Part shown: one piece after another, positions 38,892 through 56,462 of the stretch | How the letters are laid out: each line of letters starts with the position of its first letter | Numbering within the stretch: the first letter of the stretch is position 1 | NCBI RefSeq assembly: GCF_030013595.1 | Contig: NZ_CP122768.1 | Length of the DNA stretch: 64,000 nt | From: Escherichia coli | GTDB lineage: Bacteria > Pseudomonadota > Gammaproteobacteria > Enterobacterales > Enterobacteriaceae | Strand: one strand, 5' to 3' | The notes under the pieces: generated by a model | Told to the model about the DNA's origin: nothing | Seen by the model: the letters and a program-made list of their open reading frames with translations, nothing else | The model's database searches: none | Position numbers and translations under genes: made by a program

Positions 38892-38969
38892 TGGCGAATT
38901 AATCAGCAGTCAGCAGCGCGGCACTTGCTAAGGAGAGCGTAAGGTTTATAATGCCTTACGCATCTCGAA

Positions 38970-39043
38970 GCGGGCGTAGTTCAATGGTAGAACGAGAGCT
39001 TCCCAAGCTCTATACGAGGGTTCGATTCCCTTCGCCCGCTCCA
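38970..39043 (+). tRNA. glyU: tRNA-Gly, anticodon CCC
   Basis: 74 nt GCGGGCGTAGTTCAATGGTAGAACGAGAGCTTCCCAAGCTCTATACGAGGGTTCGATTCCCTTCGCCCGCTCCA; cloverleaf, T-loop GGTTCGATTCC, encoded CCA. Confidence 0.95.
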
Positions 39044-39044
39044 A
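39026..39044. repeat. attL: 19-bp direct repeat (tRNA-Gly 3' end) at the left island junction
   Basis: TTCCCTTCGCCCGCTCCAA is identical to 53083-53101. Confidence 0.85.
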
Positions 39045-39207
39045 ACAAACATTTCTCAACGTCTACTAAAGTCCATCAAACCCACGAATATCAAGCCTTC
39101 CAGCCATTTTCATAGTTTATTAACGTCTACTCACAACCACCAGAATCTACACACAGAAGTGTATAGTAATGCGTATAGGACAAAATTTATTTTTTGGAGC
39201 TATACAC

Positions 39208-40422
39208 ATGCTGCTTTCAGACCTTGCCATCAGGCGCGCGAAGCCGAAAGAAAAGGCTTATACACTCAATGACGGTAACGGGCTTTCGTTGCTCATTGAG
39301 CCGAACGGTTCGAAAGGGTGGCGACTGCGCTACAGGTTTGCAGGAAAGCCCAAAATGTTGTCGTTGGGTGTGTACCCTGATGTGTCTCTGTCTGATGCCA
39401 GGGCGGCAAGGGATGAGGCTAAAAGGCTTCTTGCTGGTGGTATAAATCCAAGTGAGGCCAGAAAAGCCCAAAAGCGAGAACAGGCGAGCAAATTTGGCAA
39501 TACTTTTGAGGGTATTGCTCGCGAATGGTACGAAAAGCGGATCGACAGGTGGTCATCGTCATACGCCGAGGAAATGATCGAGACGTTTGAAAAAGATGTT
39601 TTTCCGTACATTGGCGGTAGGCCGATCGCAGAAATTAAGCCGATGGAATTGCTGGCGGTTCTTTCCCGTCTTAATGACCGTGGTGCGACTGAAAAATTGC
39701 GTAAGGTTCGCCAGCGATGCGGCGAGGTGTTCCGGTACGCAATCATCACCGGACGCGCCGAATATAATCCAGCCCCTGACCTGGTGAGCGCATTTGCTCC
39801 ACATAAAAAAGAGCATTACGCCTATTTGAAGGCCGACGAACTGCCGGAATTTTTCCGCGTTTTTAATACGTACACCGGAAGCCAGATCGTCAAACTGGCA
39901 ATGCGGCTATTAATTCTGACAGGTGTCAGACCCGGGGAATTACGGCAGGCAGAATGGCAGGAGATCGATTTTGATAATCGTTTGTGGGAAGTGCCTAAAG
40001 AACGAATGAAGATGCGCCGTCCGCATTGTGTGCCATTACCAGAACAGGCGATAAAAATACTGGAGCAGTTAAAAAACATGACAGGCCAGTATCAGTTTAT
40101 TTTCCCCGGTCGTATTCACCACAGTAAGCCAATGAGTGAAATGGCGATGAATGTGCTCATTCGTCGTATCGGCTATGCCGGGCGCGTTACTGGTCATGGA
40201 TTCCGGCACACCATGAGCACCATTTTGCATGAGCAGGGCTATAACACCGCGTGGATAGAGACGCAGCTCGCACACGTCGATAAAAACTCAATTCGTGGCA
40301 CATACAACCATGCGCAATATCTGGATGGTCGCCGGGAGATGCTCCAGTGGTATGCCGACTATATGGATTCGCTCGAGCATGGCGGTAACGTGGTGCATGG
40401 CAAGTTCGGAAAATGTGGATGA
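39208..40422 (+). CDS. int: Tyrosine recombinase, P4-type integrase
   Basis: N-terminus MLLSDLAIRRAKPKEKAYTLNDGNGLSL...WRLRYRFAGKPK and catalytic-region residues (HGFRHT, LAH...RGTY); start after GGAGC. Confidence 0.9.
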   Translation: MLLSDLAIRRAKPKEKAYTLNDGNGLSLLIEPNGSKGWRLRYRFAGKPKMLSLGVYPDVSLSDARAARDEAKRLLAGGINPSEARKAQKREQASKFGNTFEGIAREWYEKRIDRWSSSYAEEMIETFEKDVFPYIGGRPIAEIKPMELLAVLSRLNDRGATEKLRKVRQRCGEVFRYAIITGRAEYNPAPDLVSAFAPHKKEHYAYLKADELPEFFRVFNTYTGSQIVKLAMRLLILTGVRPGELRQAEWQEIDFDNRLWEVPKERMKMRRPHCVPLPEQAIKILEQLKNMTGQYQFIFPGRIHHSKPMSEMAMNVLIRRIGYAGRVTGHGFRHTMSTILHEQGYNTAWIETQLAHVDKNSIRGTYNHAQYLDGRREMLQWYADYMDSLEHGGNVVHGKFGKCG

Positions 40423-40550
40423 CTGGTTGCGTATACAGTAGTAGACTTTGAGCGACGAAAGAAAAGGCTGTGTCTAGGGTCGCTCCCGAAAATCCGTACA
40501 CCTCGACGGACTGGTACAGCCACTACAGTAGAGGACGCTGAGGTGTGCGT

Positions 40551-41348: not shown

Positions 41349-41363
41349 CGCACCATACCGCAT

Positions 41364-41507
41364 ACCCTGAGGGTGATTTACTGTTACCCTGAGGGTATTT
41401 TTTTATCTTCCCCGTCAATTTTACCATCACCCTTAGGGTAGATTTCCTCCCGATTACCATCACCCTTAGGGTTAATTTCCTTCCGGTAACCATTAGGCCT
41501 GAGGGTA
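41364..41507. repeat. Five copies of the palindromic motif CCCT(G/T)AGGGT, including a ~33-bp tandem direct repeat; putative operator upstream of alpA
   Basis: Copies at about 41364, 41386, 41428, 41461 and 41494; unit TTACCATCACCCTTAGGGT(A/T)(G/A)ATTTCCT occurs twice. Confidence 0.6.
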
Positions 41508-41575
41508 TGAAAATATTCGTTATTTCTGTGCCAGGATTACCTCGTCAAATTGAGTAGACGTTATGAGGTAAATAT

Positions 41576-41773
41576 ATGTCAAATACGCTTATTCGTTTAA
41601 CAGAAGTTCAGCGTAGAACTGGATATAGCAAGGCATGGATTTATCGCCTTATGGGGCAAGGTAAATTTCCTGCATCAGTTAAAATTGGCTCGCGAGCTAT
41701 TGCTTTCGTTGAGAGTGAAATTGACGAGTGGATTAATCAGCGTATTGCGGAATCACGCGGAACAGCTACCTGA
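41576..41773 (+). CDS. alpA: AlpA-family phage transcriptional regulator / excisionase-like
   Basis: 65 aa, MSNTLIRLTEVQRRTGYSKAWIYRLMGQGKFPASVKIGSRAIAFVESEIDEWI, the canonical AlpA HTH. Confidence 0.8.
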   Translation: MSNTLIRLTEVQRRTGYSKAWIYRLMGQGKFPASVKIGSRAIAFVESEIDEWINQRIAESRGTAT

Positions 41774-41850
41774 TTAAATGGCTACGGGGCTATTGCCCCC
41801 AGCTATCCACCAGCAAATAAAAGTAACTTAATTCGATAGCAGGAGTTTTT

Positions 41851-42651
41851 ATGAAATTTCCAAAAACGCCCGTACAGGGGCGGGGCTTCGTTCGGCCTGA
41901 AAACCAGAATCTGCAAAATTTCGGCGAAATTATCCCGGTTATTTCCGGCGTTATTGGCGGGAGTGAAACCACTATTGTTAGCGCCAGAGCGTTACATAAG
42001 GCGTTAGGTGTAGGGCGCGTTTTCCGTTCGTGGATCAAGGGGCGCATTGAAGAATACGGGTTCACGGAAGGCGTGGATTATGAGGTTGTTGAATATTTGA
42101 GCCGACCCGATCCGGTGAGCGCAAAATCTCGCCAGCAAACCGCTCTTGAGTACATCATCACAGTGAACATGGCGAAAGAACTGGCGATGGTCGAGCGCAC
42201 CGAACAGGGCCGCGCCGTTCGTCAGTACTTCATCAAATGCGAGGAGGAGCTACACAAGGTTGCGCCTGTTCGTTCCGCAGCGTTACGCCGGGAACTGAAA
42301 GCCCGTATCACCGTTGCCAGTTACTTTAAGCCGATGTGCGCCGCGCTGGAGGCGTACCGGGCTGAACTGGGTAAAAACACGTTCCAGCACCACTACACCA
42401 CGGAAGCCAATATGCTGGCGCGTATCGTGCTGGGTGGCATGACTGCAAAACAGTGGGCGCAGGCGAACGGCATCACAGGCGAACCACGCGACCACATGAG
42501 CACGTTGCAGCTTGAGCACCTTTCTTACCTTGAGCAGAGCAATATCACGCTGATTGAGTTAGGCCAGGACTACCACCAGCGGAAAGCTGAATTAATTCGT
42601 CTTTCGCAGCGTTGGTTAGCCCGTCGCATGGAGGAAAACAGCCATGTGTAA
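41851..42651 (+). CDS. Phage antirepressor-like protein (AntA N-terminal / KilAC-like C-terminal)
   Basis: ARALHKALGVGRVFRSWIKGRIEEYGFTEGVDY and MAKELAMVERTEQGRAVRQYFIKCEE resemble Ant-type antirepressor domains; AGGAG Shine-Dalgarno. Confidence 0.65.
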   Translation: MKFPKTPVQGRGFVRPENQNLQNFGEIIPVISGVIGGSETTIVSARALHKALGVGRVFRSWIKGRIEEYGFTEGVDYEVVEYLSRPDPVSAKSRQQTALEYIITVNMAKELAMVERTEQGRAVRQYFIKCEEELHKVAPVRSAALRRELKARITVASYFKPMCAALEAYRAELGKNTFQHHYTTEANMLARIVLGGMTAKQWAQANGITGEPRDHMSTLQLEHLSYLEQSNITLIELGQDYHQRKAELIRLSQRWLARRMEENSHV

Positions 42652-43278
42652 CGCTCTGACCGTTACAAAAAGAGAAAGCGCCCCGTTGCCGGAGCGCCTT
42701 TGTGAACGAATAGCCTACTGCGCCATATTGCTTACTGTCTACGAGGCAGATTATAGCGTTGTGGTCGCACAGAGTGAAGGCGCTGATCACCGTTACTACA
42801 GCACGCCAGAAATGCAGAATATTTTGCTGCAAAATGCCGTTGGTCACGCCGTCCGGAAAGCAAAAAATTTTGCTGGTGGCGCGACTGATGCGATTTTGTC
42901 AGGTCGCCAGGTGCTGATCAATCTGATGTCTGATTTCGTTCTGGATAAAACAAAGGCGACCGCAGAGAGCCGCCAGTGGAAAAGCTACATACTTGAACGC
43001 ATCACCAACAATGCCACATTTGCGGCTGGTGGGCAATGTGATCAGTCAGATTTGGTTCGTTCCAAGGTTTGCAACGAGAGCTTTTTCCTGTGCTCTTTAA
43101 GGAATTTCTCAAGAGCAAACGAACAAGGTGCGAATCTTTCTGATTCATGTTCATGCGCTATATTTTTGCGTCGTTTCTTACGAGTTGGTGATGGTGTTTT
43201 GGTTGATTCTGTGTCGCTCATGGTGCTGTCCTGTAAAGCAATGCGCCTGCGTTCCTCAAACTATGGCGCTGATAGTGG

Positions 43279-43584
43279 CTATTCCTGCTCTTTGACCTTG
43301 CGTCGCTGGAGTTCTTCACGCGCGACGGTGACGAGTTGCCCGATCTCCTCGGCTGCTTTGACTCCGATTTTTTCCACCTGCGCCAGTGCATCGAGCGAAG
43401 AAACCAGGGGATTTTCTCCTCTTCCTTCTGCCTGGCGCCGGGCGATCTCCCCGCGCATGGCGGTTACTATGAATCCGGCGTTGCTTTCGCCGTCCAGTTT
43501 TACGGATTCCATGCCTTCAATAACATCATGCGGGATCCGAGCTGTCAGTGATTGTGATTTTGCGTTTTTTGAACCTGTAGCCAT
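43279..43584 (-). CDS. Putative small DNA-binding repressor (ribbon-helix-helix-like), divergent from the replication operon
   Basis: 101 aa from the ATG at 43584 behind GAGAGGA (track ORF extends to a TTG at 43599); faces a palindrome-containing intergenic region. Confidence 0.5.
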   Translation of the reverse strand: MATGSKNAKSQSLTARIPHDVIEGMESVKLDGESNAGFIVTAMRGEIARRQAEGRGENPLVSSLDALAQVEKIGVKAAEEIGQLVTVAREELQRRKVKEQE

Positions 43585-43780
43585 CTGTAATCCTCTCAAT
43601 GAAAGTGTAAGACAATATACACATAAAAAGTCTTACATAAAAGCATTGACATGTAAGCCACCCACAAATAAAGTTACTTACACCTTGTTAATGCAAGGTG
43701 CAGAAACGACGAAACCCGGCAGTGCGCGAACACTAACCGGGCTTCTAACCACCAACGATAGAGAGCTTATCGAGGTAGCT

Positions 43781-43984
43781 ATGTTAAATCATACCACACA
43801 CCCGCAAGGGCGGGACTCGCACAACCTGAATAAATACATCTGGCGTTTTATCGCCCTGAGTACGGCACAACCGCGCGTAATTCACATCGAGGCCACCAGC
43901 GAACAGGAAGCGCGTCAGCAATCTCCTGATGGCTGCGTGATGGTATTCGCTGCCCGTATTCGCCAGGAGGTGCACCATGCATAA
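43781..43984 (+). CDS. Hypothetical small protein (67 aa), first gene of the rightward operon
   Basis: ATG behind GAGGTAG; stop overlaps the start of the next gene; it is the C-terminal segment of track ORF 42644..43984. Confidence 0.4.
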   Translation: MLNHTTHPQGRDSHNLNKYIWRFIALSTAQPRVIHIEATSEQEARQQSPDGCVMVFAARIRQEVHHA

Positions 43985-44342
43985 CCTGTCAATTTCTGAC
44001 CTTAACAGCATTCAGTTTGACGAGAAATTTACCGGGCAGCTACTGGTCCATGTGGAGAACGGGCGCATAGTGCGTAATTACAACCTGCCGGATGGTGCAA
44101 TTGCCGGAAGCGTTGAAGCATTGCTGGAACTGGCAGAACGTGCGCGACTGATTAAGCCGTTAACGAGCCATCACGATGATGATCTGCATTTTACCGGACG
44201 CATGGTGAGTCACTACGAAAACGGTGTCGAGGTATCCCGCGAACGTCTGCGTGATGATTGCTGTTTCGGCACACTGCCGGAATTTATCGAATTGCTGACC
44301 GATTGCGGTTATCAGGTAATTCAGAGCAAGACGCAGGAGTAA
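43977..44342 (+). CDS. Hypothetical protein (121 aa)
   Basis: ORF coupled to the upstream and downstream genes; no recognisable motif. Confidence 0.5.
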   Translation: MHNLSISDLNSIQFDEKFTGQLLVHVENGRIVRNYNLPDGAIAGSVEALLELAERARLIKPLTSHHDDDLHFTGRMVSHYENGVEVSRERLRDDCCFGTLPEFIELLTDCGYQVIQSKTQE

Positions 44343-44348
44343 AAAACC

Positions 44349-44639
44349 ATGAAAAAGAAAAATTCTGGCTTTACTGCCAGCGGCCCCGCTCGGCCTGAAA
44401 TCAGACACGGCGATATTTACCGCGACACCAGACGCGGGGGACGAGTGGTTATTCGTCACGTTACGCCAGGCAATATCACCTACCGCCGCGAGGCTTACGA
44501 ATATGACTGCGTAATGCCGCGCCGTCAGTTTGAGCGTGATTTTATTCTGGTGGAAAACAAACAACAGGCGGTGGCGAGACGTGCAGCCACGAATATTAAA
44601 AAAATCCGGGCAATGTTGGTTGCGGGAGGTAAGAAGTGA
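44349..44639 (+). CDS. Hypothetical protein (96 aa)
   Basis: AGGAG Shine-Dalgarno; stop overlaps the GTG start of the primase gene. Confidence 0.5.
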   Translation: MKKKNSGFTASGPARPEIRHGDIYRDTRRGGRVVIRHVTPGNITYRREAYEYDCVMPRRQFERDFILVENKQQAVARRAATNIKKIRAMLVAGGKK

Positions 44640-46384
44640 AAAACGCACCGAATTTGAAATATCAGCCGAAGGATAAATTCACTGAGGTTATCATTTTTGC
44701 CGGGACGGATGCTTACGCCCATGCCCAACACTGGATTGAAAGCGAAGGACGAAAACATGGCGATAACGTGCCACCCGTTTATCTGGGGCCAAAGCAACTG
44801 GCAGACCTGGCGAATATCCGCATTGTCGACGATGAACGCCGCTTTGCGCGTGTTTATATCGCGGGGGAGATAGAGCCAATCCAGATCAACGCTATCGCTG
44901 AAAAACTGGCGCTGGCTGGCGTACAGGAGGCGAAATTATACAAAGGCATCACCGACCGGGAGCCGGAGAACTGGCGCGATTACCTGCAACGGTTACGCGA
45001 ACAGGCTGAGCGCGGAGAAATTCTGTCAGGAAGGACCGAGAAAAAACACAAAATATCTCTTTCCAGAATGGCGGACAGCCAAAGGGCAAAACTTTTAGCT
45101 GAACGATTTCAGGATGTAGCAATGAATCAGGAGAGTGAGGTTGTCCACGTCTGGCGCGATGATTTTTGGGTTCCGGTAAGCACACTGGATCTTAGTCGTG
45201 AAATGGTGGCTATTTACGAAGAAAACGGAACAGCGTTTAGCCGGAGAGCAATAAGCAATGCAGTGGATGCTTTAAAAGTTATGGCCAGGCCAATGGGGGA
45301 GCCGTCAGGTGATTTATTGCCGTTCGCTAATGGCGTGTTTGACCTGAAAACTGGCGAATTTTCCCCGCACTCGCTGGATAACTGGATCACCACGCATAAC
45401 GGCATTGAGTACACGCCACCAGCACCAGGGGAGAACATCCGCGACAACGCGCCAAACTTTCATAAATGGCTTGATCACGCTGCAGGAAAAGACCCGCGAA
45501 AGATGATGCGTATATGCGCTGCGCTGTACATGATTATGGCTAACCGGTACGACTGGCAAATGTTTATTGAGGCCACAGGAGACGGCGGGAGCGGCAAGAG
45601 CACATTTACGCACATAGCCACCCTTCTGGCAGGGAAACAGAACACGGTAAGCGCCGAAATGACATCGCTTGATGATGCTGGCGGGCGTGCACAGGTTGTC
45701 GGAAGTCGTCTTATTGTCCTGACAGACCAGCCGAAATATACAGGCGAAGGATCGGGAATCAAGAAAATAACTGGCGGCGACCCCGTGGAAATTAACCCGA
45801 AATATGAGAAGCGTTTCACAGCAATTATCAGGGCTGTCGTGCTGGCAACAAACAACGTGCCGATGATATTCACCGAACGGGCCGGAGGCGTTGCACGTCG
45901 ACGTGTAATTTTTCAGTTCGATAATATTGTAAGGGAGGCCGAAAAGGATAAAGAATTACCGCAAAAGATAGCGGCAGAAATACCTGTCATTATTCGTCGA
46001 CTGCTTACTAACTTTTCAGATCCAGAAAAAGCACGAGAATTATTGCTTGATCAGCGTGACGGTGCCGAAGCTCTGAAAATAAAACAGGAAACTGATCCTG
46101 TCATTGGGTTATGTGCGGCGCTTGCATTTCTTGACGAACCGCATGGAATGATGATGGGAGGCGGTAAGAGAACAGTTGACCTTAACCCACGTACAAGTCT
46201 GTACAGGCTTTATCTTGCCTTTATGGAGTACATAGGCAAAGAAGAAAAATTAAGTGTTAATGATTTTGGTAAGGCCATGAAGGCGGCTGCAAGAGAATAT
46301 GGAGCTGAATATCTGACCAGAGGTTTTAAAGGACGAACACAAACTAACGTTATAAGAACGGAGAGAACCGAGGAATTTTTATAA
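44636..46384 (+). CDS. Phage/plasmid primase-helicase (P4-alpha / PICI Pri-Rep type, SF3 P-loop)
   Basis: Walker A GDGGSGKST and Walker B-like LIVLTDQP; GTG start behind GGAGG; iterons immediately downstream. Confidence 0.85.
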   Translation: MKNAPNLKYQPKDKFTEVIIFAGTDAYAHAQHWIESEGRKHGDNVPPVYLGPKQLADLANIRIVDDERRFARVYIAGEIEPIQINAIAEKLALAGVQEAKLYKGITDREPENWRDYLQRLREQAERGEILSGRTEKKHKISLSRMADSQRAKLLAERFQDVAMNQESEVVHVWRDDFWVPVSTLDLSREMVAIYEENGTAFSRRAISNAVDALKVMARPMGEPSGDLLPFANGVFDLKTGEFSPHSLDNWITTHNGIEYTPPAPGENIRDNAPNFHKWLDHAAGKDPRKMMRICAALYMIMANRYDWQMFIEATGDGGSGKSTFTHIATLLAGKQNTVSAEMTSLDDAGGRAQVVGSRLIVLTDQPKYTGEGSGIKKITGGDPVEINPKYEKRFTAIIRAVVLATNNVPMIFTERAGGVARRRVIFQFDNIVREAEKDKELPQKIAAEIPVIIRRLLTNFSDPEKARELLLDQRDGAEALKIKQETDPVIGLCAALAFLDEPHGMMMGGGKRTVDLNPRTSLYRLYLAFMEYIGKEEKLSVNDFGKAMKAAAREYGAEYLTRGFKGRTQTNVIRTERTEEFL

Positions 46385-46401
46385 GAGTAATGCCTGCAAC
46401 A

Positions 46402-46691
46402 GGTAGACGGGTAGATATTGGGTAGATGCTAGTTTTATGGATGCCTACCCGCTGAATCCCTTGCGCCACAAGGGATTCAGCGAAATAGGTAGATAGGGTA
46501 GACAATATCTCGCTTAAAAACTTTTTTACGCAGCGAAAGGAAAATACAGGTTAGAGAATGGAGAGTTAAAAGAAAGTCACTTTTACTATCTACCCTATCT
46601 ACCTAATAGATAAAAGTTGTTTTTTATCATTGTGTTAAGTGGGTAGATAACCGTTTCTTTGTTGTCTACCTGTTATCTACCTTGTCTACCC
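46402..46691. repeat. Putative replication origin: at least 11 copies of the iteron GGGTAGA(T/C) in both orientations, an 11-bp-arm hairpin and an AT-rich stretch
   Basis: Iterons at 46402, 46409, 46420, 46488, 46496, 46588, 46597, 46641, 46664, 46675 and 46684; inverted repeat CTGAATCCCTT/AAGGGATTCAG at 46452-46480. Confidence 0.7.
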
Positions 46692-46760
46692 ATAAGATGA
46701 AAGTACCGGATACGCCGTGAAGGTGCAGGCAGTGAAGCCCTGGTTATCGCATGTACCAAG

Positions 46761-47108
46761 ATGAAGGATGCGGAGGAACTGAAAGAAATGGCTTGCGATT
46801 TGCGCGAGGTTGAGCTTTTCAAGGATGAAGGCGGGGAGTTAATCACGTCGTTGGTGCTGGAGGATAAGCCCCGCCCACCCGTTGAACTGGAGCGCATCGA
46901 GTACGCTGCTAACAAGACAGAGAATCACGACGCGCTATGGGGCTGTATCCGTTCACGCACACAGCGCGGCGATAAATGCACTATCCCGTTGTTGCGCGAT
47001 GACATGAAAAAGCTGGGGTATGAGATGAAACACTTCCGGCGCTGGCTGTACAAGCTGGAAAGCGACGGCGTAATCGCTATTGACGGTGATTATGTGCGCC
47101 CACTGTAA
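46761..47108 (+). CDS. Hypothetical protein (115 aa)
   Basis: ORF only; sits between the origin and the GTGAGGA array. Confidence 0.4.
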   Translation: MKDAEELKEMACDLREVELFKDEGGELITSLVLEDKPRPPVELERIEYAANKTENHDALWGCIRSRTQRGDKCTIPLLRDDMKKLGYEMKHFRRWLYKLESDGVIAIDGDYVRPL

Positions 47109-47495
47109 AAAGTGAGGAGCAAAAGTGAGGATGGCGGGTAATTTAACAAAAAATCAACGCCACTCCTCACTTTCTCACCTGTATATAGGTCAAAAAGTGA
47201 GGAGTTAAAAACACATTGCAAAACAACAGATTACAACAATAAAGAAAACGACTGAGGAGCAGAACAAGAATAATAAAAAGTGAGGAACAAAAGTGAGGAA
47301 TGGTGAGTTAATAGAAATGAGGTAATAAAAATAACAGGTAGGTTAAAAAACACACCATGCAAGATATTAACTAAAACTTAACTATTTACCTCACTTTTGC
47401 GTATATATAAGGATTAAAAAGTGAGTACTTAAAAATACATTTAAAATCATATTGTTATTAACTTCATAAATTTTCACTGTGCAGCAGGTGAGGAA
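47107..47495. repeat. AT-rich non-coding array of at least 8 copies of AAAGTGAGGA (both orientations)
   Basis: Copies at about 47107, 47121, 47161 (inverted), 47193, 47276, 47289, 47388 (inverted), 47417 and 47487; no ORF of 60 aa or more. Confidence 0.6.
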
Positions 47496-47574
47496 TTAAA
47501 AAATCAGGAATGTTAAAAATGAAAACAGAATGTTGTGTCAGTGCCGTTGGGCAACGTAGCAACCAGTAAAAACG

Positions 47575-48117
47575 ATGGGGCAAAGCATGACTAAGCTGAC
47601 CATTAACAGAAAACCGAAAGGCATTTACGGCACGCCGCAGAAAACGACGCAGGCGGCGCAGGAGCAGGATAAAACCACATCGGCGCATAAAGTGATGCCC
47701 GGTAACCAGAAAGCGCAGCAGAAGCCCACAGGGGCGACACCGTGGCGGCATATGACCAAACGCCAGCGCAAAAACCGCAGGCGCGTTAACCGCCTCACTG
47801 AGTTGTGGCCTGAATTATTCAGCCGGGAAGCACCGAAGCCGCTTAAGGTGGGGATATTCGACGACCTGATGCAGGATCTCGCCGTCAGGGGGCTGGCATT
47901 CGGTCCAGGGGCATTGCGTGCGACGCTGGCATCTTATGCGCAGTGTCCGCGCTATTACCGCGCCTTAATGGCTGGTGGGGTACGCTACGACCTGAAAGGC
48001 CAGCCGTGCGGCGAGGTGACACCACAGGAACAACAGGACGCCGAAACGCGGCTGGTGGCGCTGAATGAGAAGCGCAAACGTCAGCGCCGGGCAGCAAAGG
48101 AGAAAACAGGCGCATGA
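47575..48117 (+). CDS. ProQ/FinO-domain RNA-binding protein
   Basis: LTELWPELFSREAPKPLKVGIFDDLMQDL...RATLASYAQCPRYYRALMAGGVRYDLKGQPCGEV parallels the recalled ProQ N-terminal domain (RFPHCF...RPLKIGIFQDL...RVDLDGNPCGE). Confidence 0.7.
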   Translation: MGQSMTKLTINRKPKGIYGTPQKTTQAAQEQDKTTSAHKVMPGNQKAQQKPTGATPWRHMTKRQRKNRRRVNRLTELWPELFSREAPKPLKVGIFDDLMQDLAVRGLAFGPGALRATLASYAQCPRYYRALMAGGVRYDLKGQPCGEVTPQEQQDAETRLVALNEKRKRQRRAAKEKTGA

Positions 48118-48401
48118 TTCACGACAGCAAAGCGGAAGCACTGGAAGCGCGTGGTCTGTACCGGAGAGCGGCGGCGCGGTGGGCTGAGGTCATCATGCTG
48201 GCGAATGATGACAAGGCACGGGAACAGGCGGCAAAACGTCGCGCGGAATGTATCCGCAAGGCAGCACGCCCACCAGCAAGGCAGGATAATTTCGGGGAAA
48301 TGCGCGAAACCATCAGCCGGGCACATGCCGGGATGGGATTACATCAGCCCAATGGTAAGGCATTCAGGAAATACCCTGGATCGAAAAATTGCAGTCAGTG
48401 A
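48114..48401 (+). CDS. PerC-family transcriptional regulator (copy 1)
   Basis: MIHDSKAEALEARGLYRRAAARWAEVIM...RRAECIRKA matches the PerC/Pch family signature as I recall it; ATGA overlap with the ProQ/FinO gene. Confidence 0.7.
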   Translation: MIHDSKAEALEARGLYRRAAARWAEVIMLANDDKAREQAAKRRAECIRKAARPPARQDNFGEMRETISRAHAGMGLHQPNGKAFRKYPGSKNCSQ

Positions 48402-48405
48402 CAGA

Positions 48406-48430
48406 AGCCGGGATTTTTCCCGGCTTTTTT
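48406..48430 (+). terminator. Rho-independent terminator after the PerC-like gene
   Basis: AGCCGGG-attttt-CCCGGCT followed by a T6 run. Confidence 0.75.
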
Positions 48431-48442
48431 GTGCCAGTAAAA

Positions 48443-48477
48443 AGCCCGCAGCCAGAAGTGTTGCGGGCTTTGTTTTT
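48443..48477 (+). terminator. Second tandem rho-independent terminator
   Basis: AGCCCGCA...TGCGGGCT followed by TTGTTTTT. Confidence 0.65.
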
Positions 48478-48596
48478 CAGGTGATTGAAGTCAATGGGAA
48501 GAACGCGATCATCATGCGTTATCGCTTCATAAATTGCAACGATGTAGATCGTTATTTCAGTTTGTGCAATCATAATCATTGTTTTGTTCAGGAGAT

Positions 48597-48776
48597 ATGA
48601 CTATGAGAAAAGCCAGCGTGAAACCCGTTTTACTCGCTCGTGATCAGATTGAAGCATTACAGCGCATCCAGGACGAGGAACGCCGCAATTCTCCGCTGGG
48701 GATTGCTCCGAGCATTCATGAGGTCGCCCGGCGTTTAATGCAGCGGGCGCTTTATCCCGTAGAACGTCCGGCCTGA
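48597..48776 (+). CDS. Hypothetical small protein (59 aa)
   Basis: ATG behind CAGGAG; MTMRKASVKPVLLARDQIEALQRIQDEE... Confidence 0.4.
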   Translation: MTMRKASVKPVLLARDQIEALQRIQDEERRNSPLGIAPSIHEVARRLMQRALYPVERPA

Positions 48777-48815
48777 TGGTCGTGATTTTTTGGTGAAAAA
48801 AGAGAGGTGGTAAAA

Positions 48816-49400
48816 ATGCCAGCAAGCAAAGAAGATTTGCGATTAAAACTGATGGAGGTGGTTAACGCTCTGTCAGAGTCGCAGGGCAGCACTCCGCAGG
48901 AGATTATCGAAATTCTGAATGCGATCCCCGCACAGGATTTCACAAAAGCGGACGAGGATGACGCGAATAAAAACATCGTCGCGTCAGTCGAAGATGAATC
49001 CTCACTGGCAGAAGCCCAGGCTAAAGCGGATTCCGCATACAGCAATATGGGCCGTCGCGCTCCAGCCCCGTTTGCTGGTGAAAAGTCGATGGATTACCGC
49101 AAGCGTGCATTAATTGGTGCACAGAAGCTGGCTAAAAAATTCAGTGATGTGGATATTCGTTCCGTTTCAGATTCTGCAACGCTGGCGGTGCTGGAAGATC
49201 AGATTTACCAGGCTGCAAAAGACAGTGTTCAGTGGGCTGTGGAAAATACGCCGGGCTATTTGCGTAAAACCGTAAGAATGGATGAAGCCGGACGGCGGAT
49301 TACTGAATATCAGGGGGATCCGAATAACTGGCTTAGTGCTTTCAAAATCCCTCCCCGTCGCCTGGTTAAAATTAACGTTGCAAGCCTCGCGGGGGCATGA
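48816..49400 (+). CDS. Hypothetical protein (194 aa)
   Basis: ATG behind GAGGTGG; acidic, with predicted helical regions; no recognisable motif. Confidence 0.5.
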   Translation: MPASKEDLRLKLMEVVNALSESQGSTPQEIIEILNAIPAQDFTKADEDDANKNIVASVEDESSLAEAQAKADSAYSNMGRRAPAPFAGEKSMDYRKRALIGAQKLAKKFSDVDIRSVSDSATLAVLEDQIYQAAKDSVQWAVENTPGYLRKTVRMDEAGRRITEYQGDPNNWLSAFKIPPRRLVKINVASLAGA

Positions 49401-49464
49401 AAAACGTGCTGATTTCAGCCCTGCCGGATTTGGTGGGGCTTATTGCTTATAACCGGGGGACATT

Positions 49465-50118
49465 ATGCTTTTAACAGAAATTGAGGCGGCAAAGCAGATT
49501 CGGGACGGTCAGCTACCGTCGCCTTATCAGTTTTCCAACATGTGGCTGATTAACCTGCGTATCACAGGAACCGGAATGGCCTATCGCGCCGAAGAAAAAG
49601 AATTTGTCTGGCGTTCACCGCAAACTTATCTCAATCCGCAGTTCCTGGAACGTTGCGCCGGAGTACCCGTCATTATCGACCATCCCGAAAGCAAAACCCT
49701 TGAAGACGTGGGCGAACGGTCGCGCATTATTGGCACCGTTATGTTGCCGTATATTCGCGGTGACGAGGTGTGGGGCGTATGCCGGATTTACGGGCAGGAA
49801 ATCATCGATTACATCCAGAAAGCACGGGGGGAGGTATCCACCAGCCCGTCGGTTGTGTTTTGTGGTGCGTCCGGTGGGGCAGAAGTTCCTGATGTAATGG
49901 GCGAGGACAATTTTTTCATTGAGGGTACGCCATTTCTTATCGATCACGTTGCGCTCGTACCGTTGGGCGTATGGGATAAGGGCGGGAAACCATCAGGTGT
50001 GGAAGTAACAACGCCGACAGAAGAAGAACAGCTCGCCGGAATGGTCCGTGAAGTTATTGATGCGGCCTGCAAGCCAGCCCTGGAAAAACTGGAAGAAATA
50101 TCCGGGCGCTGGCTATGA
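49465..50118 (+). CDS. Hypothetical protein (217 aa)
   Basis: ORF behind a GGGGGA Shine-Dalgarno; no recognisable motif. Confidence 0.5.
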   Translation: MLLTEIEAAKQIRDGQLPSPYQFSNMWLINLRITGTGMAYRAEEKEFVWRSPQTYLNPQFLERCAGVPVIIDHPESKTLEDVGERSRIIGTVMLPYIRGDEVWGVCRIYGQEIIDYIQKARGEVSTSPSVVFCGASGGAEVPDVMGEDNFFIEGTPFLIDHVALVPLGVWDKGGKPSGVEVTTPTEEEQLAGMVREVIDAACKPALEKLEEISGRWL

Positions 50119-50288
50119 ATCGTGGGATTGTCCCTGCAGCAGGAAACAATGATCAGAACGTTAAGTTGGAAATTGTTCGGAACGCTGGTGCCGATTACTT
50201 CGCGCAACTAATTGGTGCTCAACGGTTCCTGGGATGATTTAAATACACGCGCTTTCCGGCGCATTAATACAGTCTGAGGGGAAGTGTC

Positions 50289-50813
50289 ATGTTTATGAGC
50301 AAGGCAGAATATGCCAAACACAAAGGCGTAAGCCGCCAGACAGTTTACGACTGGATCGAGAAAGGCGAAGTGGTCATGTCCGGTAAAAAAATCGATGTGG
50401 AAGCGACAGAGCAGCGGAACAGCCCACCAGCACAGGGAAAAGATACCGTTTCTGAAATGTGGCCAGAGAGAACGCTGGAAATGACGTGGGGCGAGTTCTG
50501 GAAAGCAGTTAAGGCCAGAGACGGTAAAATCCCTGCACCAGTAACGGACGATGACATACAGCAGCGTGTGCAGGATGCAGCCGGGGAACTATGCTGTGAA
50601 GTGCAATTTCTTGATGATGGTGCTATCTGCCTTGAGGATTATGCTGGGCAATATTACTTTGAGCAGTATGATTTTCGGGAAAATGCCAGGCTGGCAATTC
50701 GTATGCTGCGTTGTGAGCTCTGCTATGTTGCAGGTGATTGTCCCGATGAGCTGGATAACTGGAGTGAAGCCGGACTAAACGCCCTGGCTGAGTGGGAAAA
50801 ATCATCCCATTAA
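50289..50813 (+). CDS. HTH-domain protein (small-terminase / Rpp-like N-terminus)
   Basis: N-terminus SKAEYAKHKGVSRQTVYDWIEKGEV is a typical HTH as seen in phage small terminase subunits; followed by a repeat array. Confidence 0.5.
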   Translation: MFMSKAEYAKHKGVSRQTVYDWIEKGEVVMSGKKIDVEATEQRNSPPAQGKDTVSEMWPERTLEMTWGEFWKAVKARDGKIPAPVTDDDIQQRVQDAAGELCCEVQFLDDGAICLEDYAGQYYFEQYDFRENARLAIRMLRCELCYVAGDCPDELDNWSEAGLNALAEWEKSSH

Positions 50814-50826
50814 TGACCGTAAAATT

Positions 50827-51110
50827 CGCGAAAAGTGTCAAGTCAGGCCGTCTGCCGGGTTGACACTTTACACTCTGAACGCGAAAAAGTGTCAACCTCG
50901 CTGTAAGCCCCGCCATTACTGGCCTTTCGCCAGATTTACCACGTCAAAAAGCCGAAAAAATCGCGAAAAGTGTCAAGTTGCCATGCTTAGAAATGCTAAG
51001 GTTTGATAAGGTTTTTCGCGAAAAAGTGTCAAGTGTGTCAACCTGCGATGTTAAGATTTGTTAAGGTCTTAAGCCGGAAAGTGTCAACCAGCCCCTAAGA
51101 TTTCCTAAGG
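50827..51110. repeat. Array of at least 6 copies of CGCGAAAAGTGTCAA plus three TAAG(A/G)TTT doublets
   Basis: Copies at about 50827, 50861 (inverted), 50880, 50960, 51016 and 51078; non-coding. Confidence 0.6.
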
Positions 51111-51118
51111 TGTAAATC

Positions 51119-51409
51119 ATGACCATCACCGAAGCCGATATGCTGGAGATGATCCGCAGCATTGCCGGAATCAGACCACCAGCAGGCAAACAGGAGGCCA
51201 CGCAGCCGGACAGCGTTATCGCTGAGAACTATGCGCGTGTGGTGGCTGAGGTGATGCGCCGTGACGGTATTGAGCTTAACGGAGTGGATATGCGCGACAT
51301 ACGCACCAGGGTACTCGAGTTATTGGCCTACCGTCGCCGCGTGCAGATGTACCGGGAGAGCGAGAAAAAGACTTACCAGTGGAAGAAGCCGGAGCGGTTA
51401 CGGCGGTAA
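51119..51409 (+). CDS. Hypothetical protein (96 aa)
   Basis: ORF behind an AAGGTG Shine-Dalgarno. Confidence 0.45.
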   Translation: MTITEADMLEMIRSIAGIRPPAGKQEATQPDSVIAENYARVVAEVMRRDGIELNGVDMRDIRTRVLELLAYRRRVQMYRESEKKTYQWKKPERLRR

Positions 51410-51459
51410 CCAGTTGATAAAAAGGCTCCTCAATTTTGAGGAGGGTAGCTGGTGGCTGG

Positions 51460-51481
51460 CAGAATGTAAATTTACATTCTG
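51460..51481. terminator. Perfect 22-bp palindrome between convergent genes (bidirectional terminator or protein site)
   Basis: CAGAATGTAAATTTACATTCTG, preceded by a second hairpin CTCCTCA-attt-TGAGGAG at 51426-51443. Confidence 0.5.
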
Positions 51482-51511
51482 GTGATTTAATCATCTGATT
51501 TACCCGATGGC

Positions 51512-51802
51512 TTACCTTACCAGGCCATAGCGGATTACCGTGCAATGCGCACCATCGCCACCAATACGCACATCAAAACGTGGCTCACGGACTTTCACAC
51601 GCTCCAGCAACTTATCACGAACCATAGCGTTTAGCGTCCTTCGTGTTGCCTCTATGTGATATCGCTGATATTCGGAACCATAGAGCAGCACTGTAACACC
51701 ACGAACATCAAAAGGTGGATCTCCAGCCTCCACCCGCACCCAATCGCGATACTCAGGTTTGTAGAGTTCAAGGATCTGTTTTTTGTGCCTGGTCATTCTC
51801 AT
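51512..51802 (-). CDS. Hypothetical protein (96 aa)
   Basis: Minus-strand ORF with a protein-like composition; palindromic operator upstream. Confidence 0.45.
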   Translation of the reverse strand: MRMTRHKKQILELYKPEYRDWVRVEAGDPPFDVRGVTVLLYGSEYQRYHIEATRRTLNAMVRDKLLERVKVREPRFDVRIGGDGAHCTVIRYGLVR

Positions 51803-51916
51803 GCGTGCAACTCCTTATTGTGGGACAGTACTGTCATACAATAAGCTATACGGAAAATTATCAAAAGAACAGAAACCAACCATTCAGATTTAACAGGTAT
51901 CAATGGGATTATGCTT

Positions 51917-52219
51917 ATGGTGCATGATGACAAAGCGGAAGAACTGGAAGCGAAAGGCTTATGGCGACGGGCGGCTAATCGCTGGGGTGAGTTACTGAAA
52001 CAGGCGGCAAGTGATGAAGCGCGTCAGTATGTAACGGAACGACGAACGGCATGCATCCGGAAGGCAACCATAACCCGGGAACCGGAAAGAGACCTGATTT
52101 GTGCCATAAGAACCGCCGCCACAAAAACACTAACGGATATGGGGATCGACCTGAAAAAAGAAGATCCACTGCGGGGCATTCAGCACGGACATACAAAGCA
52201 GGATAAACGCAGGAAGTAA
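51917..52219 (+). CDS. PerC-family transcriptional regulator (copy 2)
   Basis: MVHDDKAEELEAKGLWRRAANRWGELL...RRTACIRKA parallels copy 1 at 48114 (clear paralogue); alternative ATG at 51911. Confidence 0.7.
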   Translation: MVHDDKAEELEAKGLWRRAANRWGELLKQAASDEARQYVTERRTACIRKATITREPERDLICAIRTAATKTLTDMGIDLKKEDPLRGIQHGHTKQDKRRK

Positions 52220-53082
52220 ATTTTTTCGTGTAACCAGGCAACCGACTATCTGAAAGATAGTCACACCCTACCGGGATCACGCTAGTAACGCACAACAGAG
52301 TGACCCATAGCCACCCTGTTTAACCGTTCCGGCTGGCTGGGCAGATTTTGCGCGGGTCTTATAGTCCCTCACAACAGAGTAAATAAAATTGACTTGGTTA
52401 CAGAGTAACCAAACCGGAGATTCCCGGTTTGCTCAAAAAATGACAATGAGTTACGCCCCTAACCTAAGTAATCCTTACATTCACTGCATCATCACCATGA
52501 TGGTGACGCAGCCCACCAGCAACCATAACGATTTCCGTTACAGTTGATGTGCTTTTTTGCTGGTAAGGCGTAACCCGTTGATTGTTCCAGAATCCACCAT
52601 CGGTGGAAGTTGAAAAACTCACCCGCCAGATTCTGAATGGTGAAAATCACCGGGGATCTGAATAGGCATTTCCTCTATGGAGGTCGCACCGTTTTCGGGA
52701 GAAGGTGCGATCATGTTCGTCATACCTGTTCCGTTGAAACGGAATACCCCATTCCGGCGTAGCTGGTGGACGCACAGCCACATACGAAAAATTGCATTCA
52801 GGAGGGGGGATCGAAATCCCTACCCCCCATTGCTTATGGGACCGCCCGCCCCGTCAAATTTTTACACCCGCGAAATTAAAAAAATGCGTCGCGCTGGTGG
52901 GCCTGATGCCGATATGGGGATTCCCATAACGGGTTATCCATGATCATCCACCAGCTTGATAACGGATAACAGGGGATGCGAAATCCTCAAGCGAGTGATA
53001 AACGTGTATAGAAATGTGTATAGAATCTATTTTAGAACTCGAGAATGTGCCTTTATTACTGGTCTTGTTGCTTGTTGTATTG

Positions 53083-53101
53083 TTCCCTTCGCCCGCTCCA
53101 A
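53083..53101. repeat. attR: 19-bp direct repeat of the tRNA-Gly 3' end at the right island junction
   Basis: TTCCCTTCGCCCGCTCCAA is identical to 39026-39044. Confidence 0.85.
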
Positions 53102-53333
53102 TTTATCTTCACCTCATCAACCTGTCATTTTTGTTGTATCTGATTTTCTATATTATCTTAATTCAATCGCTTCAGACTTTTCGCAATCGCCGAAATACTT
53201 CCCCATTTTGTTGTAAATAAAAAGCGTTTACGCAATGCAATCCTTTTGTAACAACCCAGGTAAAATACCTTATTTTCAAGTTGTTAAATAAGTGGTTATC
53301 TACGCTTTTAACAAACGATTGATGGAATATTTT

Positions 53334-54944
53334 ATGAAAGGGAAATCTGCATTAACGCTTCTGCTTGCTGGTATATTTTCGTGCTGCACATGCCAGGCGA
53401 CATGGGCAGAAGTGACGAGTGACTCCGTATTTAACATTCTTAATTCCAGGGGGGAAGCAATAGATAAAAGTTATTTATCGTTAAATCCAGATAAGTATCC
53501 TAATTATCGTCTTCTGATTCACTCAGCCAAATTACAAAATGAAATAAAGAGCCACTATACCAAAGACGAAATTCAAGGATTGTTTACATTAACAGAAAAC
53601 ACACGAAAGTTAGCGTTGACGGAGAAACCCTGGGGAACGTTTATTCTTGCTTCTACTTTCGAAGATGACAAAACAGCGACAGAAACCCACTATGATGCTG
53701 TCTGGCTGAGGGATAGTTTATGGGGCTATATGGCATTAGTATCAGATCAGGAAAATAGGGTAGCTGCAAAAAAGATTCTGCTCACCCTGTGGGATTATAT
53801 GTCTACGCCCGACCAGATTAAGCGGATGCAGGATGTCATTAGCAACCCAAAACGACTGGATGGAATTCCCGGGCAAATGAATGCTGTGCATATCCGATTT
53901 GACAGCAACTCCCCCGTGATGGCAGATGTGCAGGAAGAAGGCAAGCCGCAGCTGTGGAACCATAAACAAAATGATGCTTTAGGTCTTTATCTTGATCTCC
54001 TTATACAAGCCATCGACACTGGTACTATTAACGCTGAAGACTGGGAAAAAGGTGACCGATTAAAATCGATTGCGCTGTTGGTTGCTTATCTGGATAAATC
54101 CAATTTCTATATTATGGAAGATTCTGGAGCGTGGGAAGAAGATGCCCGATTAAACACATCTTCCGTTGCACTGGTGACCTCGGGACTGGAACGTTTGTCG
54201 AACTTACTCTCGAAGAAAGACTCTGTTTTTATTTCTGATTTACTACGCGAAGCTAAAGCCAATGAACTGGATGAAACTTTTTCAACAACGAGGTTGAACC
54301 ATCTCATAGATAAAGGGTATGAAAGAATAACGCTACAGCTTGATTTAGGGGGAGAATCCCCTGGTTATCTGGAAAAAGATAAACATTACAGAGAAGCTGA
54401 TGCGGCCTTACTTAATGTTATTTATCCTGCAAATCTTTCAAAGATAAACACCAGAAGAAAAGAGCAAGTTCTAAAAATAGTTAAAAAACTAGCAGGTCCG
54501 TATGGTATAAAAAGATACGAGAAGGATAATTATCAGTCGGCAAATTTTTGGTTCAATGATATTAAAACTGATACTGATGAAAATTCACATGCGAAAAGAG
54601 AAATGAGCTTCATTCCATCAACAGAAGCAGAATGGTTTTTTGACTCATGGTATGCAAAATCAGCAGCAATTGTTTATAAAGAATCAAGAAAAGAAGAGTA
54701 TTTGAATGACTCAGTGCAATTTATGAATAGATCATTGGCCCAAATAACAGGCGAGAATATGATTGGTGCAAATGGCAGGAGCGTACCAGAAATGGCACTT
54801 CCCGAAAGCTATAACTATATCCACAAGTCGGGAACTTTGCATGAAGCGCCAAGCCCTATCATTCCGCTAAATTGGTCGAAAGCTTCAATGACTCTCATGT
54901 TGAAAGAGATGTCCAACCTTATCAATGATGAGGGAATTAAATAG
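53334..54944 (+). CDS. Secreted hypothetical protein flanking ETT2 (possibly glycoside-hydrolase-like)
   Basis: Signal peptide MKGKSALTLLLAGIFSCCTCQATWA; AT-rich; DAVWLRDSLWG motif is weakly reminiscent of (alpha/alpha)6 glycosidases; sits where ygeP/ygeQ lie in K-12 as I recall. Confidence 0.55.
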   Translation: MKGKSALTLLLAGIFSCCTCQATWAEVTSDSVFNILNSRGEAIDKSYLSLNPDKYPNYRLLIHSAKLQNEIKSHYTKDEIQGLFTLTENTRKLALTEKPWGTFILASTFEDDKTATETHYDAVWLRDSLWGYMALVSDQENRVAAKKILLTLWDYMSTPDQIKRMQDVISNPKRLDGIPGQMNAVHIRFDSNSPVMADVQEEGKPQLWNHKQNDALGLYLDLLIQAIDTGTINAEDWEKGDRLKSIALLVAYLDKSNFYIMEDSGAWEEDARLNTSSVALVTSGLERLSNLLSKKDSVFISDLLREAKANELDETFSTTRLNHLIDKGYERITLQLDLGGESPGYLEKDKHYREADAALLNVIYPANLSKINTRRKEQVLKIVKKLAGPYGIKRYEKDNYQSANFWFNDIKTDTDENSHAKREMSFIPSTEAEWFFDSWYAKSAAIVYKESRKEEYLNDSVQFMNRSLAQITGENMIGANGRSVPEMALPESYNYIHKSGTLHEAPSPIIPLNWSKASMTLMLKEMSNLINDEGIK

Positions 54945-55233
54945 TTTTCATAATGAGGCGGTCCTGGATTAAAAGGACCGCTCAAAGAGAAATCGTAAGG
55001 GAGGTAAAAGTGATCAATAAATTACTGTTAGCTTACCTGATAGGTCTGGTTGTAACATCGACCTTAATATTTATCTTCTCGGAAGAAAAAGTAACATATC
55101 GGTTGTTTGCTGCAGTAATTACAGGGTTGACCTGGCCGCTTAGCCTCATTCCATCCATCATAAGTCTCATAATTCGTAAATCCGACTAACAAGAAATTTA
55201 TATGAACGATTAAGAAAAATAGTGGATTTGCCC

Positions 55234-56139: not shown

Positions 56140-56462
56140 TTTTTTGCCCGTCCATATTCAACGGCTTCTTTGAGGAGTTCATTTTCCATCGTTTTCTTGC
56201 CGAGCAGGCGCTGGAGTTCTTTAATCTGCTTCATGGCGGCAGCAAGTTCAGAGGCAGGAACAACCTGTTCTCCGGCGGCGACAGCAGTAAGACTTCCTTC
56301 CTGGTATTGCTTACGCCAGAGAAATAACTGGCTGGCTGCTACACCATGTTGCCGGGCAACGAGGGAGACCGTCATCCCCGGTTCAAAGCTCTGCTGAACA
56401 ATTGCGATCTTTTCCTGTGTGGTACGCCGTCTGCGTTTCTCCGGCCCTAAGACATCAATCAT
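56097..56462 (-). CDS. insC: IS2 transposase OrfA
   Basis: [52 protein letters not shown]...; HTH; overlaps insD for -1 frameshift fusion. Confidence 0.9.

Follow-up and report, generated by a model that had tools for sequence, protein, structure and literature searches.

A predicted FinO-domain RNA-binding protein encoded beside a PerC-family regulator on a PICI-type phage satellite of Escherichia coli

Three main classes of RNA chaperone are recognized in bacteria, and the FinO-domain proteins make up one of them; to our knowledge, only a handful have been studied, namely, ProQ, FinO, FopA, RocC, and NMB1681. On the F plasmid, the tra operon ends with finO. FinO works with FinP and traJ, and FopA works with Inc RNA and repZ in replication control (PMC9977716). 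In the crystal structure of RocC with its RNA, RocR, the residues Tyr87 and Arg97 and the turn at Gly52 bury the 3′-terminal nucleotide, and contacts to three phosphates at the hairpin base come from an N-cap helix that carries Arg75; the conserved FinO-domain pocket recognizes the ribose 2′/3′-OH terminus (PMC9674577). Here, we analyzed a 64,000-nucleotide stretch of the Escherichia coli contig NZ_CP122768.1 (assembly GCF_030013595.1; hereafter the window), in which a FinO-like gene and a PerC-family gene lie side by side on an island of the phage-inducible chromosomal island (PICI) type. The FinO-like gene is a new, so far unstudied member of the known ProQ/FinO family. Judging from homology and genomic context, we consider it probable that its product is made along with the replication operon of the satellite, binds the terminator-hairpin 3′ ends of a few RNAs, and acts on RNAs of the satellite.

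The original prediction, drawn from the DNA letters, described a 180-aa protein with a ProQ/FinO signature whose stop codon overlaps the start of a PerC-family gene. The upstream open reading frame (ORF), 47575–48117 on the plus strand, does encode 180 aa from its first in-frame ATG, so the frame stands but the size probably does not: translation more likely begins at the ATG of 47587, for a product of 176 aa, because a GGGG motif lies 8 nt upstream of this ATG, the RefSeq annotation begins there, nearly all homologues open with an MT.LTINRKP-type N terminus at that Met, and homology between islands begins just ~20 to 25 nt 5′ of it. The downstream ORF (48114–48401, plus strand) encodes 95 aa. 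The ATGA overlap at 48114–48117 is present as described, with the PerC ATG (48114–48116) lying over the upstream TGA (48115–48117) in the context GGCGCATGATTCAC. Profile searches, which had been proposed along with the prediction, gave significant matches for both families. The upstream product matched Pfam ProQ/FinO (PF04352) with an E-value of 1.5e-23 over residues 68 to 172 in the 180-aa numbering (model positions 5–108 of 109), and the downstream product matched Pfam PerC (PF06069) from end to end (1–89 of 90) with an E-value of 2.4e-32. RefSeq/PGAP labels the two as 'ProQ/FINO family protein' and 'PerC family transcriptional regulator.'

Sequence matches of the FinO-like protein in the Protein Data Bank (PDB) were the N-terminal domain of ProQ, FinO, NMB1681, and RocC. 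An AlphaFold model, with a mean predicted local distance difference test score of 84.7 and values >95 across the FinO domain (residues 60–170), shows ~55 disordered and basic N-terminal residues, a basic helix (58–73), the FinO domain (~74–145), and a long basic helix (146–175) that ends the protein with no further domain. All 26 matches of this model to PDB structures by Foldseek at E <0.001 were FinO-domain structures, the top one being FinO (1DVO; 1.9 Å over 102 columns), and the calculated isoelectric point was 10.6. The protein failed the NCBIfam profile for FinO proper (NF010317), with 64.7 bits against a cut-off of 136, in an alignment that starts at residue 32 and takes in the basic N-terminal helix. 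It scored 57.9 bits against a cut-off of 127 for ProQ proper (NF003434), of which just profile positions 6 to 120 of 205 align. The linker and C-terminal Tudor-like domain of ProQ are absent from the AlphaFold model because the protein stops at residue 176 after the last helix of the domain. The FinO-like protein is thus assigned by sequence to the ProQ/FinO superfamily as neither FinO proper nor ProQ proper.

We then mapped the RNA-contacting residues of RocC onto the protein through the PDB sequence alignment and counted their conservation in 119 diverse relatives. Tyr87 of RocC corresponds to Y123, which is kept in 119 of the 119 relatives; Arg97 to R133 (118/119); and Gly52 to G89 (110/119). 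Arg75 corresponds to R111, a position occupied by Arg or Lys in 81/119. By homology, the FinO-like protein would therefore be expected to bind RNA consisting of a hairpin plus a 3′ tail.

Pairwise ratios of nonsynonymous to synonymous substitution rates (dN/dS) against 15 homologues were 0.10 to 0.32, which indicates purifying selection on a gene that encodes a working protein. Homologues occur in Escherichia, Shigella, Salmonella, and Citrobacter, with the reading frame intact in hundreds of clusters. These data bear on the idea of a passenger gene in decay, or of the unexpressed pseudogene that the original prediction had itself named. A scan of 46300–49000 gave no promoter-like site near the pair, and the neighborhood is a recombination scar with a replicase remnant, as such an idea would have it. 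However, the intact frame, the low dN/dS, and the invariant functional residues contradict it, as does the fact that the ribosome-binding site is conserved, like the overlap with the start of the next gene, and we regard this explanation as close to excluded.

To place the protein among mobile-element relatives, we compared it with phage and plasmid collections. Just seven phage records matched, at 27 to 39% identity, and plasmid FinO-type genes matched at ~30 to 39%; two records of the plasmid collection exceeded 60%, one of them a 4.8-Mb E. coli record that is evidently chromosomal. A phage or plasmid origin of the gene was rejected, since phage matches (27–39%) and genuine plasmid matches (~30–39%) place it in a separate clade. 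On sequence grounds, we place the protein in a clade that is specific to enterobacterial phage satellites and separate from those of FinO, ProQ, and the other members with solved structures. A literature search combining FinO/ProQ with PICI, satellite, or prophage returned nothing on the FinO-like protein, and its role in satellites is undescribed there. No description of a satellite FinO-like clade was found in the PICI literature examined or in the FinO-family review, which makes only generic mention of phage- or plasmid-derived homologues integrating into chromosomes (PMC9977716).

The distribution of the pair was examined by blastn with the FinO-domain half plus PerC as the query against 5426 complete E. 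coli genomes. The query matched in 1886 of them, and an adjacent pair, defined as one place covering at least 80% of the query, was found in 239. An evenly spaced sample of 40 hits comprised 5 with both genes, 19 with the FinO-like gene only, and 16 with PerC only, from which we extrapolate that roughly one-fifth of complete E. coli genomes carry island-type FinO-like genes. All 381 near-identical places in E. coli were chromosomal, and the natural carrier E. coli cq9 shows 99.5% identity over this region. The original prediction had called the combination an unusual regulatory module. This description does not hold: the pair is already annotated in RefSeq, it recurs in the 239 genomes, PerC is the 3′ neighbor in 49 of 69 close relatives from IMG/VR, usually with the 4-nt ATGA overlap, and PerC homologues of PICIs have been published. 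The pair is a common cassette and no new kind of system.

Comparison of the island contexts showed a variable slot 3′ of the FinO-like gene. Besides PerC, the slot holds an unrelated 82-aa ORF in 15 of the 69 IMG/VR relatives, with a 10-nt overlap and a capsid gene after it (capsid-forming PICIs); the relatives L014 and L051 carry capsid genes. The commonest FinO-like allele (P0047) has a 138-aa ORF downstream with a 20-nt overlap, one lineage has PerC upstream of the FinO-like gene instead, and the O157 island OI-51 has ssb-perC without a FinO-like gene. The start codon of each slot occupant overlaps the FinO-like stop codon. On the 5′ side, the neighbor is either the primase with origin iterons or ssb. 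What stays constant is therefore the location at the end of the replication module, an overlap with whichever gene follows, and a terminator, and PerC is a frequent, nonobligatory occupant of the slot. A separate observation concerns the history of the slot: in L002/L005 at ~9900–9990, past the 138-aa ORF, the translation ...LYRRAAARWGEVM... appears to be a 5′-truncated PerC remnant, which suggests that an ancestral FinO-like/PerC pair had part of its sequence replaced by the 138-aa gene. A stoichiometric complex of the FinO-like and PerC proteins was rejected because unrelated genes fill the slot in other islands.

The interchangeable partner also argues against a dedicated two-part module, and with it against a broad RNA chaperone that reprograms host or helper-phage transcripts with PerC as its coexpressed transcriptional arm. 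FinO-domain proteins of the minimal kind, NMB1681 among them, are able to bind numerous RNAs (PMC9674577; PMC7272453), the terminator-binding pocket is generic, and PICI PerC homologues can alter expression of the host locus of enterocyte effacement (LEE) (PMC11773190), all of which would suit a broad chaperone. However, the partner may be PerC, the 82-aa ORF, the 138-aa ORF, or a PerC placed upstream; the studied mobile-element FinO-like proteins, FinO and FopA, have one or few element-encoded clients (PMC9977716); and the sequence does not point to any particular phage or host target. A broad chaperone is therefore an unlikely explanation, and the anatomy of the locus points to the satellite's own RNAs at least as much as to host or helper transcripts. 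PerC homologues are common cargo of Gram-negative PICIs (PMC6092414, PMC11773190), and their effects range from none on LEE1 to repression (PMC11773190). The island carries a second PerC-family gene (51911–52219), whose product weakly matched the ANR anti-virulence regulator family at 19 bits, below the cut-off of 32; the ANR-like signal echoes a published PICI PerC homologue that acts as a repressor.

The two tandem terminators that had been read 3′ of PerC were borne out. Both are hairpins followed by U-tracts, T1 begins 2 nt past the PerC stop codon, and together they fold at −41.6 kcal/mol (z = −4.8), a value that 0 of 200 shuffled sequences equaled. A simple terminator consensus scan picked up T2 only, not T1. 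Among the relatives examined, most have a terminator at the T1 position after the gene 3′ of the FinO-like gene, and T2, and hence the twin form, is present in just a subset. These hairpins raise the possibility that the FinO-like protein binds the 3′ terminator hairpins of its own bicistronic mRNA, shields them from 3′ exonucleases, and sets the levels of itself and PerC. The position of strong hairpin-plus-U terminators directly after PerC, their counterparts in most relatives, and the protection of mRNA 3′ ends as an established ProQ activity (PMC12086684) agree with this. Nevertheless, every operon needs a terminator, so that its presence is unspecific, the twin form is limited to a subset of relatives, and the terminator sequences vary by lineage; we regard autoregulation of this kind as improbable. 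An antisense RNA against the FinO-like gene itself was also considered from two weak terminator-like sites on the minus strand at 47795–47779 and 47636–47620, in the 5′ part of the ORF, and was rejected because their stems have just 5 bp and such sites are no more numerous than in shuffled sequence (4 found, 3.3 expected). Rfam around the terminators of the pair gave chance-level leader and small RNA look-alikes only.

With respect to operon position, in many islands the ssb stop codon lies 36 to 40 nt 5′ of the FinO-like ATG, and in others the iterons abut the ribosome-binding site. The FinO-like gene is thus without a conserved promoter of its own and occupies the distal end of the replication operon, to which we infer that it belongs. 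Since it lacks its own conserved promoter and directly follows primase-ori or ssb, the FinO-like protein would be made when the replication operon is transcribed. The same constant position could be taken to mean a role in DNA replication, for example, one in which it joins SSB in binding primer RNA or structured single-stranded regions of the origin, and episomal Vibrio satellites are reported to carry parA, repA, and a ProQ/FinO-like gene (PMC13230959). Against this, the FinO-domain literature examined gives no FinO-domain protein acting on DNA, the pocket recognizes a ribose 2′/3′-OH terminus (PMC9674577), and adjacency in a compact satellite is weak evidence. A replication role of this type thus appears very improbable.

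A candidate partner RNA was found opposite the start of the icd-like gene, the first gene of the replication operon. The minus strand from 43781 to ~43700 folds at −38.8 kcal/mol (z −4.98) into two stem-loops. The first (SL1) is complementary to the GAGG Shine–Dalgarno sequence and the ATG of icd-like, the second (SL2) resembles a terminator hairpin with a U-rich tail behind it, and an extended −10 motif on the minus strand, TGGTATGAT, can be read ~7 nt before the proposed 5′ end. Across 19 distinct variants from related islands, the stems of SL1 were invariant and its loop was variable, whereas the structure of SL2 was kept through compensatory changes at four pairs. Many of the pairs are formed as G-U on the minus strand; on the plus strand, the corresponding positions would be mismatched as A-C. 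These compensatory changes and strand-specific G-U pairs indicate that an RNA structure is selected on the antisense strand. Clear U tails are present in several variants, for example, UUGUUUUUUUUG. The top Rfam match was SymR with 30.8 bits against a gathering score of 61, so the RNA belongs to no curated Rfam family, and a literature search on an icd-like antisense RNA returned no description of one.

By analogy with FinO and FinP, this ~80-nt antisense RNA (43781 to ~43700, minus strand) and the FinO-like protein might form a feedback loop on satellite replication: the protein would stabilize the RNA or hasten its pairing at the icd-like ribosome-binding site, and expression of the icd-primase-(ssb) operon would limit itself. 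We offer this loop tentatively and think it unlikely as it stands, and the RNA is an equally doubtful choice as the specific client of the protein.

More generally, the reading that we favor is one in which the FinO-like protein and PerC are encoded by a two-gene unit at the far end of the satellite replication operon. As in its homologues, the protein would grip the base of an intrinsic-terminator hairpin and bury the 3′-OH end of the U-tail in the Tyr123/Arg133/Gly89 pocket, and the basic N-terminal helix may, like that of FinO, contribute affinity or an activity in strand pairing. The outcome could be protection of a small set of RNAs, faster pairing of antisense RNA with mRNA, or both. The clients would most plausibly be the satellite's own RNAs, with the icd-like antisense RNA as the leading candidate, and PerC would be a separate small regulator in the variable downstream slot. 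Several observations weigh against parts of this scheme. The N-cap Ser of RocC is Gly in the FinO-like protein, and two neighboring Lys residues of RocC are Pro and Ala. A sigma-70 promoter scan of 46300–49000 found no site, and no promoter could be assigned to the pair; between the primase origin and the FinO-like gene lie an 850-bp replicase remnant and a second set of iterons, so that read-through from the primase is uncertain here. As for the antisense RNA, its region occurs in 1439 of the 5426 complete E. coli genomes and on islands without a FinO-like gene, such as OI-51, its U-tail in this window is weak (GUCGUUUCUG), and, if it requires a chaperone, host ProQ could serve instead.

So far, descriptions of PICI biology have centered on AlpA, helper-phage inducers, and the redirection of packaging. 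If the FinO-like protein has a defined satellite client, a post-transcriptional layer would be added to this biology, and the two would make a compact protein–RNA pair for studying target choice by FinO domains. Were the feedback loop real, ProQ, FinO, and FopA would be joined by a fourth enterobacterial FinO-domain system of distinct function, and phage satellites would have their first described control circuit that depends on an RNA chaperone.

The location on a mobile element, also part of the original prediction, is now precisely bounded. A 19-nt direct repeat, TTCCCTTCGCCCGCTCCAA, occurs at 39026–39044, at the 3′ end of tRNA-Gly(CCC), and at 53083–53101, and delimits an island of 14,076 bp (39026–53101; Table 1). 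The flanks are E. coli chromosome (xdhA, actS, and tRNA-Gly), 95 to 99.9% identical to 5414 of the 5426 complete genomes. The island carries int, alpA, and pri-rep with adjacent iterons, its genes share one orientation, it has att repeats, and its size lies within ~10 to 15 kb; by gene content and architecture, it is classified as a Gram-negative PICI-type phage satellite. The same architecture has been published for Gram-negative PICIs (PMC6092414; PMC11773190). No tail or lysis families were found among the island ORFs searched by PHROG and family matches, and the island has no major capsid, portal, or head-tail connector genes of its own, which sets it apart from capsid-forming PICIs; in this respect, it has just a DUF2213 protease-like protein, phrog_6216 fragments, and the small-terminase-like protein. 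The island is a mosaic: at most 69% of it is found in one place in any complete E. coli genome, and related segments occur in 2068 of 5426. PADLOC assigned no defense-system family to the pair or its neighbors, and a defense-system reading of the pair was dropped. An Rfam scan of 38000–57000 at E up to 1 gave seven matches, of which only the tRNA and the int-alpA RNA reached gathering scores; two subregions scanned further at E up to 10 added no match that did.

Several other features of the island deserve mention. AlpA is a published PICI inducer. The int-alpA RNA sits between the integrase gene and a 267-aa ORF of unassigned function, alpA lies 1 kb further on, and two tandem copies of a 33-nt repeat, TTACCATCACCCTTAGGGTAGATTTCCTCCCGA, are found at 41421–41486, upstream of alpA. 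A 446-aa ORF at 42644–43984 is probably no gene, its family match being confined to the last ~50 codons (Icd-like). Strong minus-strand terminators at 42700–42675 and 42974–42955 within this ORF point to small leftward genes, as does a minus-strand YlcI/YnfO-family gene annotated by RefSeq in the homologous region of E. coli cq9. In the replication module, the primase N terminus and the replicase remnant match the two ends of phrog_2850, and this split family, together with the two unlike iteron sets flanking the remnant, suggests a replication-module swap that left the old origin behind; the ~850-bp insert with the remnant is absent from the relatives L030, L034, and L035. Four CGCGAAAA(A)GTGTCAAGT-like repeats (50817–51032) lie in the intergenic region after the small-terminase-like gene and could be a regulator-binding or packaging site. 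Just past attR, outside the island, are IS3-family transposase ORFs on the minus strand (55234–56507).

Table 1 Positions in the window of the FinO-like/PerC pair, its terminators, the candidate antisense RNA, and other island features
Feature	Position	Strand	Evidence
tRNA-Gly(CCC), integration target; 3′ end carries attL	38970..39043	+	ARAGORN; Rfam tRNA 71.6 bits; repeat
Tyrosine integrase	39169..40422	+	phrog_1, E 7.8e-80
int-alpA RNA motif RF02996	40467..40534	+	45.5 bits against gathering score 35.8
AlpA-type small helix-turn-helix regulator, 65 aa	41576..41773	+	ORF and sequence; position matches Pfam Phage_AlpA genes in L002 (no profile on the ORF itself)
AntA/AntB-type anti-repressor	41851..42651	+	phrog_5817, E 8.7e-42
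Promoter-like site TTGACA-17-TAAAGT before icd-like/primase operon	43646..43674	+	10/12 consensus match only
Candidate cis-antisense small RNA, two stem-loops	43700..43781	-	Fold; covariation in 19 variants; Rfam near-match
Icd-like small protein, first replication-operon gene	43781..43984	+	NCBIfam NF033153 67.8 bits against cut-off 25; RefSeq
DUF4222 protein, before primase in all related islands	44349..44639	+	RefSeq; Pfam DUF4222 in relatives
D5_N/DUF5906 primase (PICI pri-rep)	44636..46384	+	phrog_864 DNA primase, E 1.3e-143
Iteron array, GGTAGATA-type repeats in both orientations around AT-rich core, putative origin	46398..46700		Repeat search and sequence
C-terminal remnant of a different replicase (RepA-helicase type)	46761..47108	+	phrog_2850 positions 347-465 of 465; RefSeq 'helicase RepA family protein, missing N-terminus'
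Second iteron set, AAAGTGAGGA repeats, probably origin of the remnant replicase	47105..47500		Repeat search
FinO-domain RNA-binding protein gene (predicted)	47587..48117 (alternative in-frame ATG 47575)	+	Pfam, PDB matches, AlphaFold, Foldseek, dN/dS
PerC-family small regulator gene	48114..48401	+	Pfam PerC E 2.4e-32; phrog_994
Intrinsic terminator T1	48403..48432 (hairpin 48403-48428)	+	11-bp stem including A-U pairs; tail UUUUUUG; fold
Intrinsic terminator T2	48441..48481 (hairpin 48441-48471)	+	12-bp stem, then GUUUUU; consensus scan and fold
Downstream module: 57-aa ORF; 197-aa and 217-aa proteins (phrog_6216; DUF2213, protease-like); 174-aa protein with N-terminal helix-turn-helix, small-terminase-like	48603..50813	+	
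Second PerC-family gene	51911..52219	+	phrog_994, E 1.6e-25; BLASTP 46% identity to first PerC
attR, second copy of 19-nt repeat	53083..53101		Repeat search

Among the known systems, FopA of IncI plasmids is the functional analogy that we favor: it is a mobile-element FinO-domain protein with a part in controlling a replication gene, by way of a cis-antisense RNA (PMC9977716). The likeness is one of described function, and satellite replication uses a primase and iterons, not RepZ. FinO, the top structural match, resembles the FinO-like protein in having its domain flanked by a basic N-terminal helix and a C-terminal helix without a Tudor-like domain. The likeness may extend to FinO/FinP/traJ as a system, in that the satellite gene closes a long operon carried by a mobile element and the candidate RNA, like FinP, consists of two hairpins with a 3′ tail and lies opposite the ribosome-binding site with which the operon's first gene is translated. 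By contrast, identity to FinO is just ~30 to 37%, the score remains below the curated cut-off (64.7 against 136 bits), and the satellite gene is on an integrated chromosomal phage satellite and not in the tra operon of an F-like conjugative plasmid; as for FinP, only the tRNA and the int-alpA RNA of the island reach Rfam gathering thresholds.

ProQ (5NB9) is the top PDB sequence match (E 5.6e-12) and has the PLK(I/V)GIF, RY, and RxDLxGxPCGE motifs in common with the FinO-like protein. It differs in lacking, as aligned, the 55-residue basic N-terminal extension and in having the linker and Tudor-like domain that the FinO-like protein does not, consistent with the ProQ profile score of 57.9 against 127 bits. 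RocC of Legionella and NMB1681 of Neisseria have the same fold (target-normalized TM-score up to 0.84) and the same 3′-end pocket residues; both are chromosomal regulators from other phyla with 26 to 30% identity to the FinO-like protein, RocC having a long C-terminal extension and NMB1681 being minimal, without a long basic N terminus. The downstream gene product, finally, resembles the PerC/Pch regulators (PerC of enteropathogenic E. coli, PchA-E of enterohemorrhagic E. coli, and EcCIMP1_025) in its full-length Pfam PerC match, and its place on a PICI after the replication module is that of PchE in OI-51 and agrees with other published PICIs.

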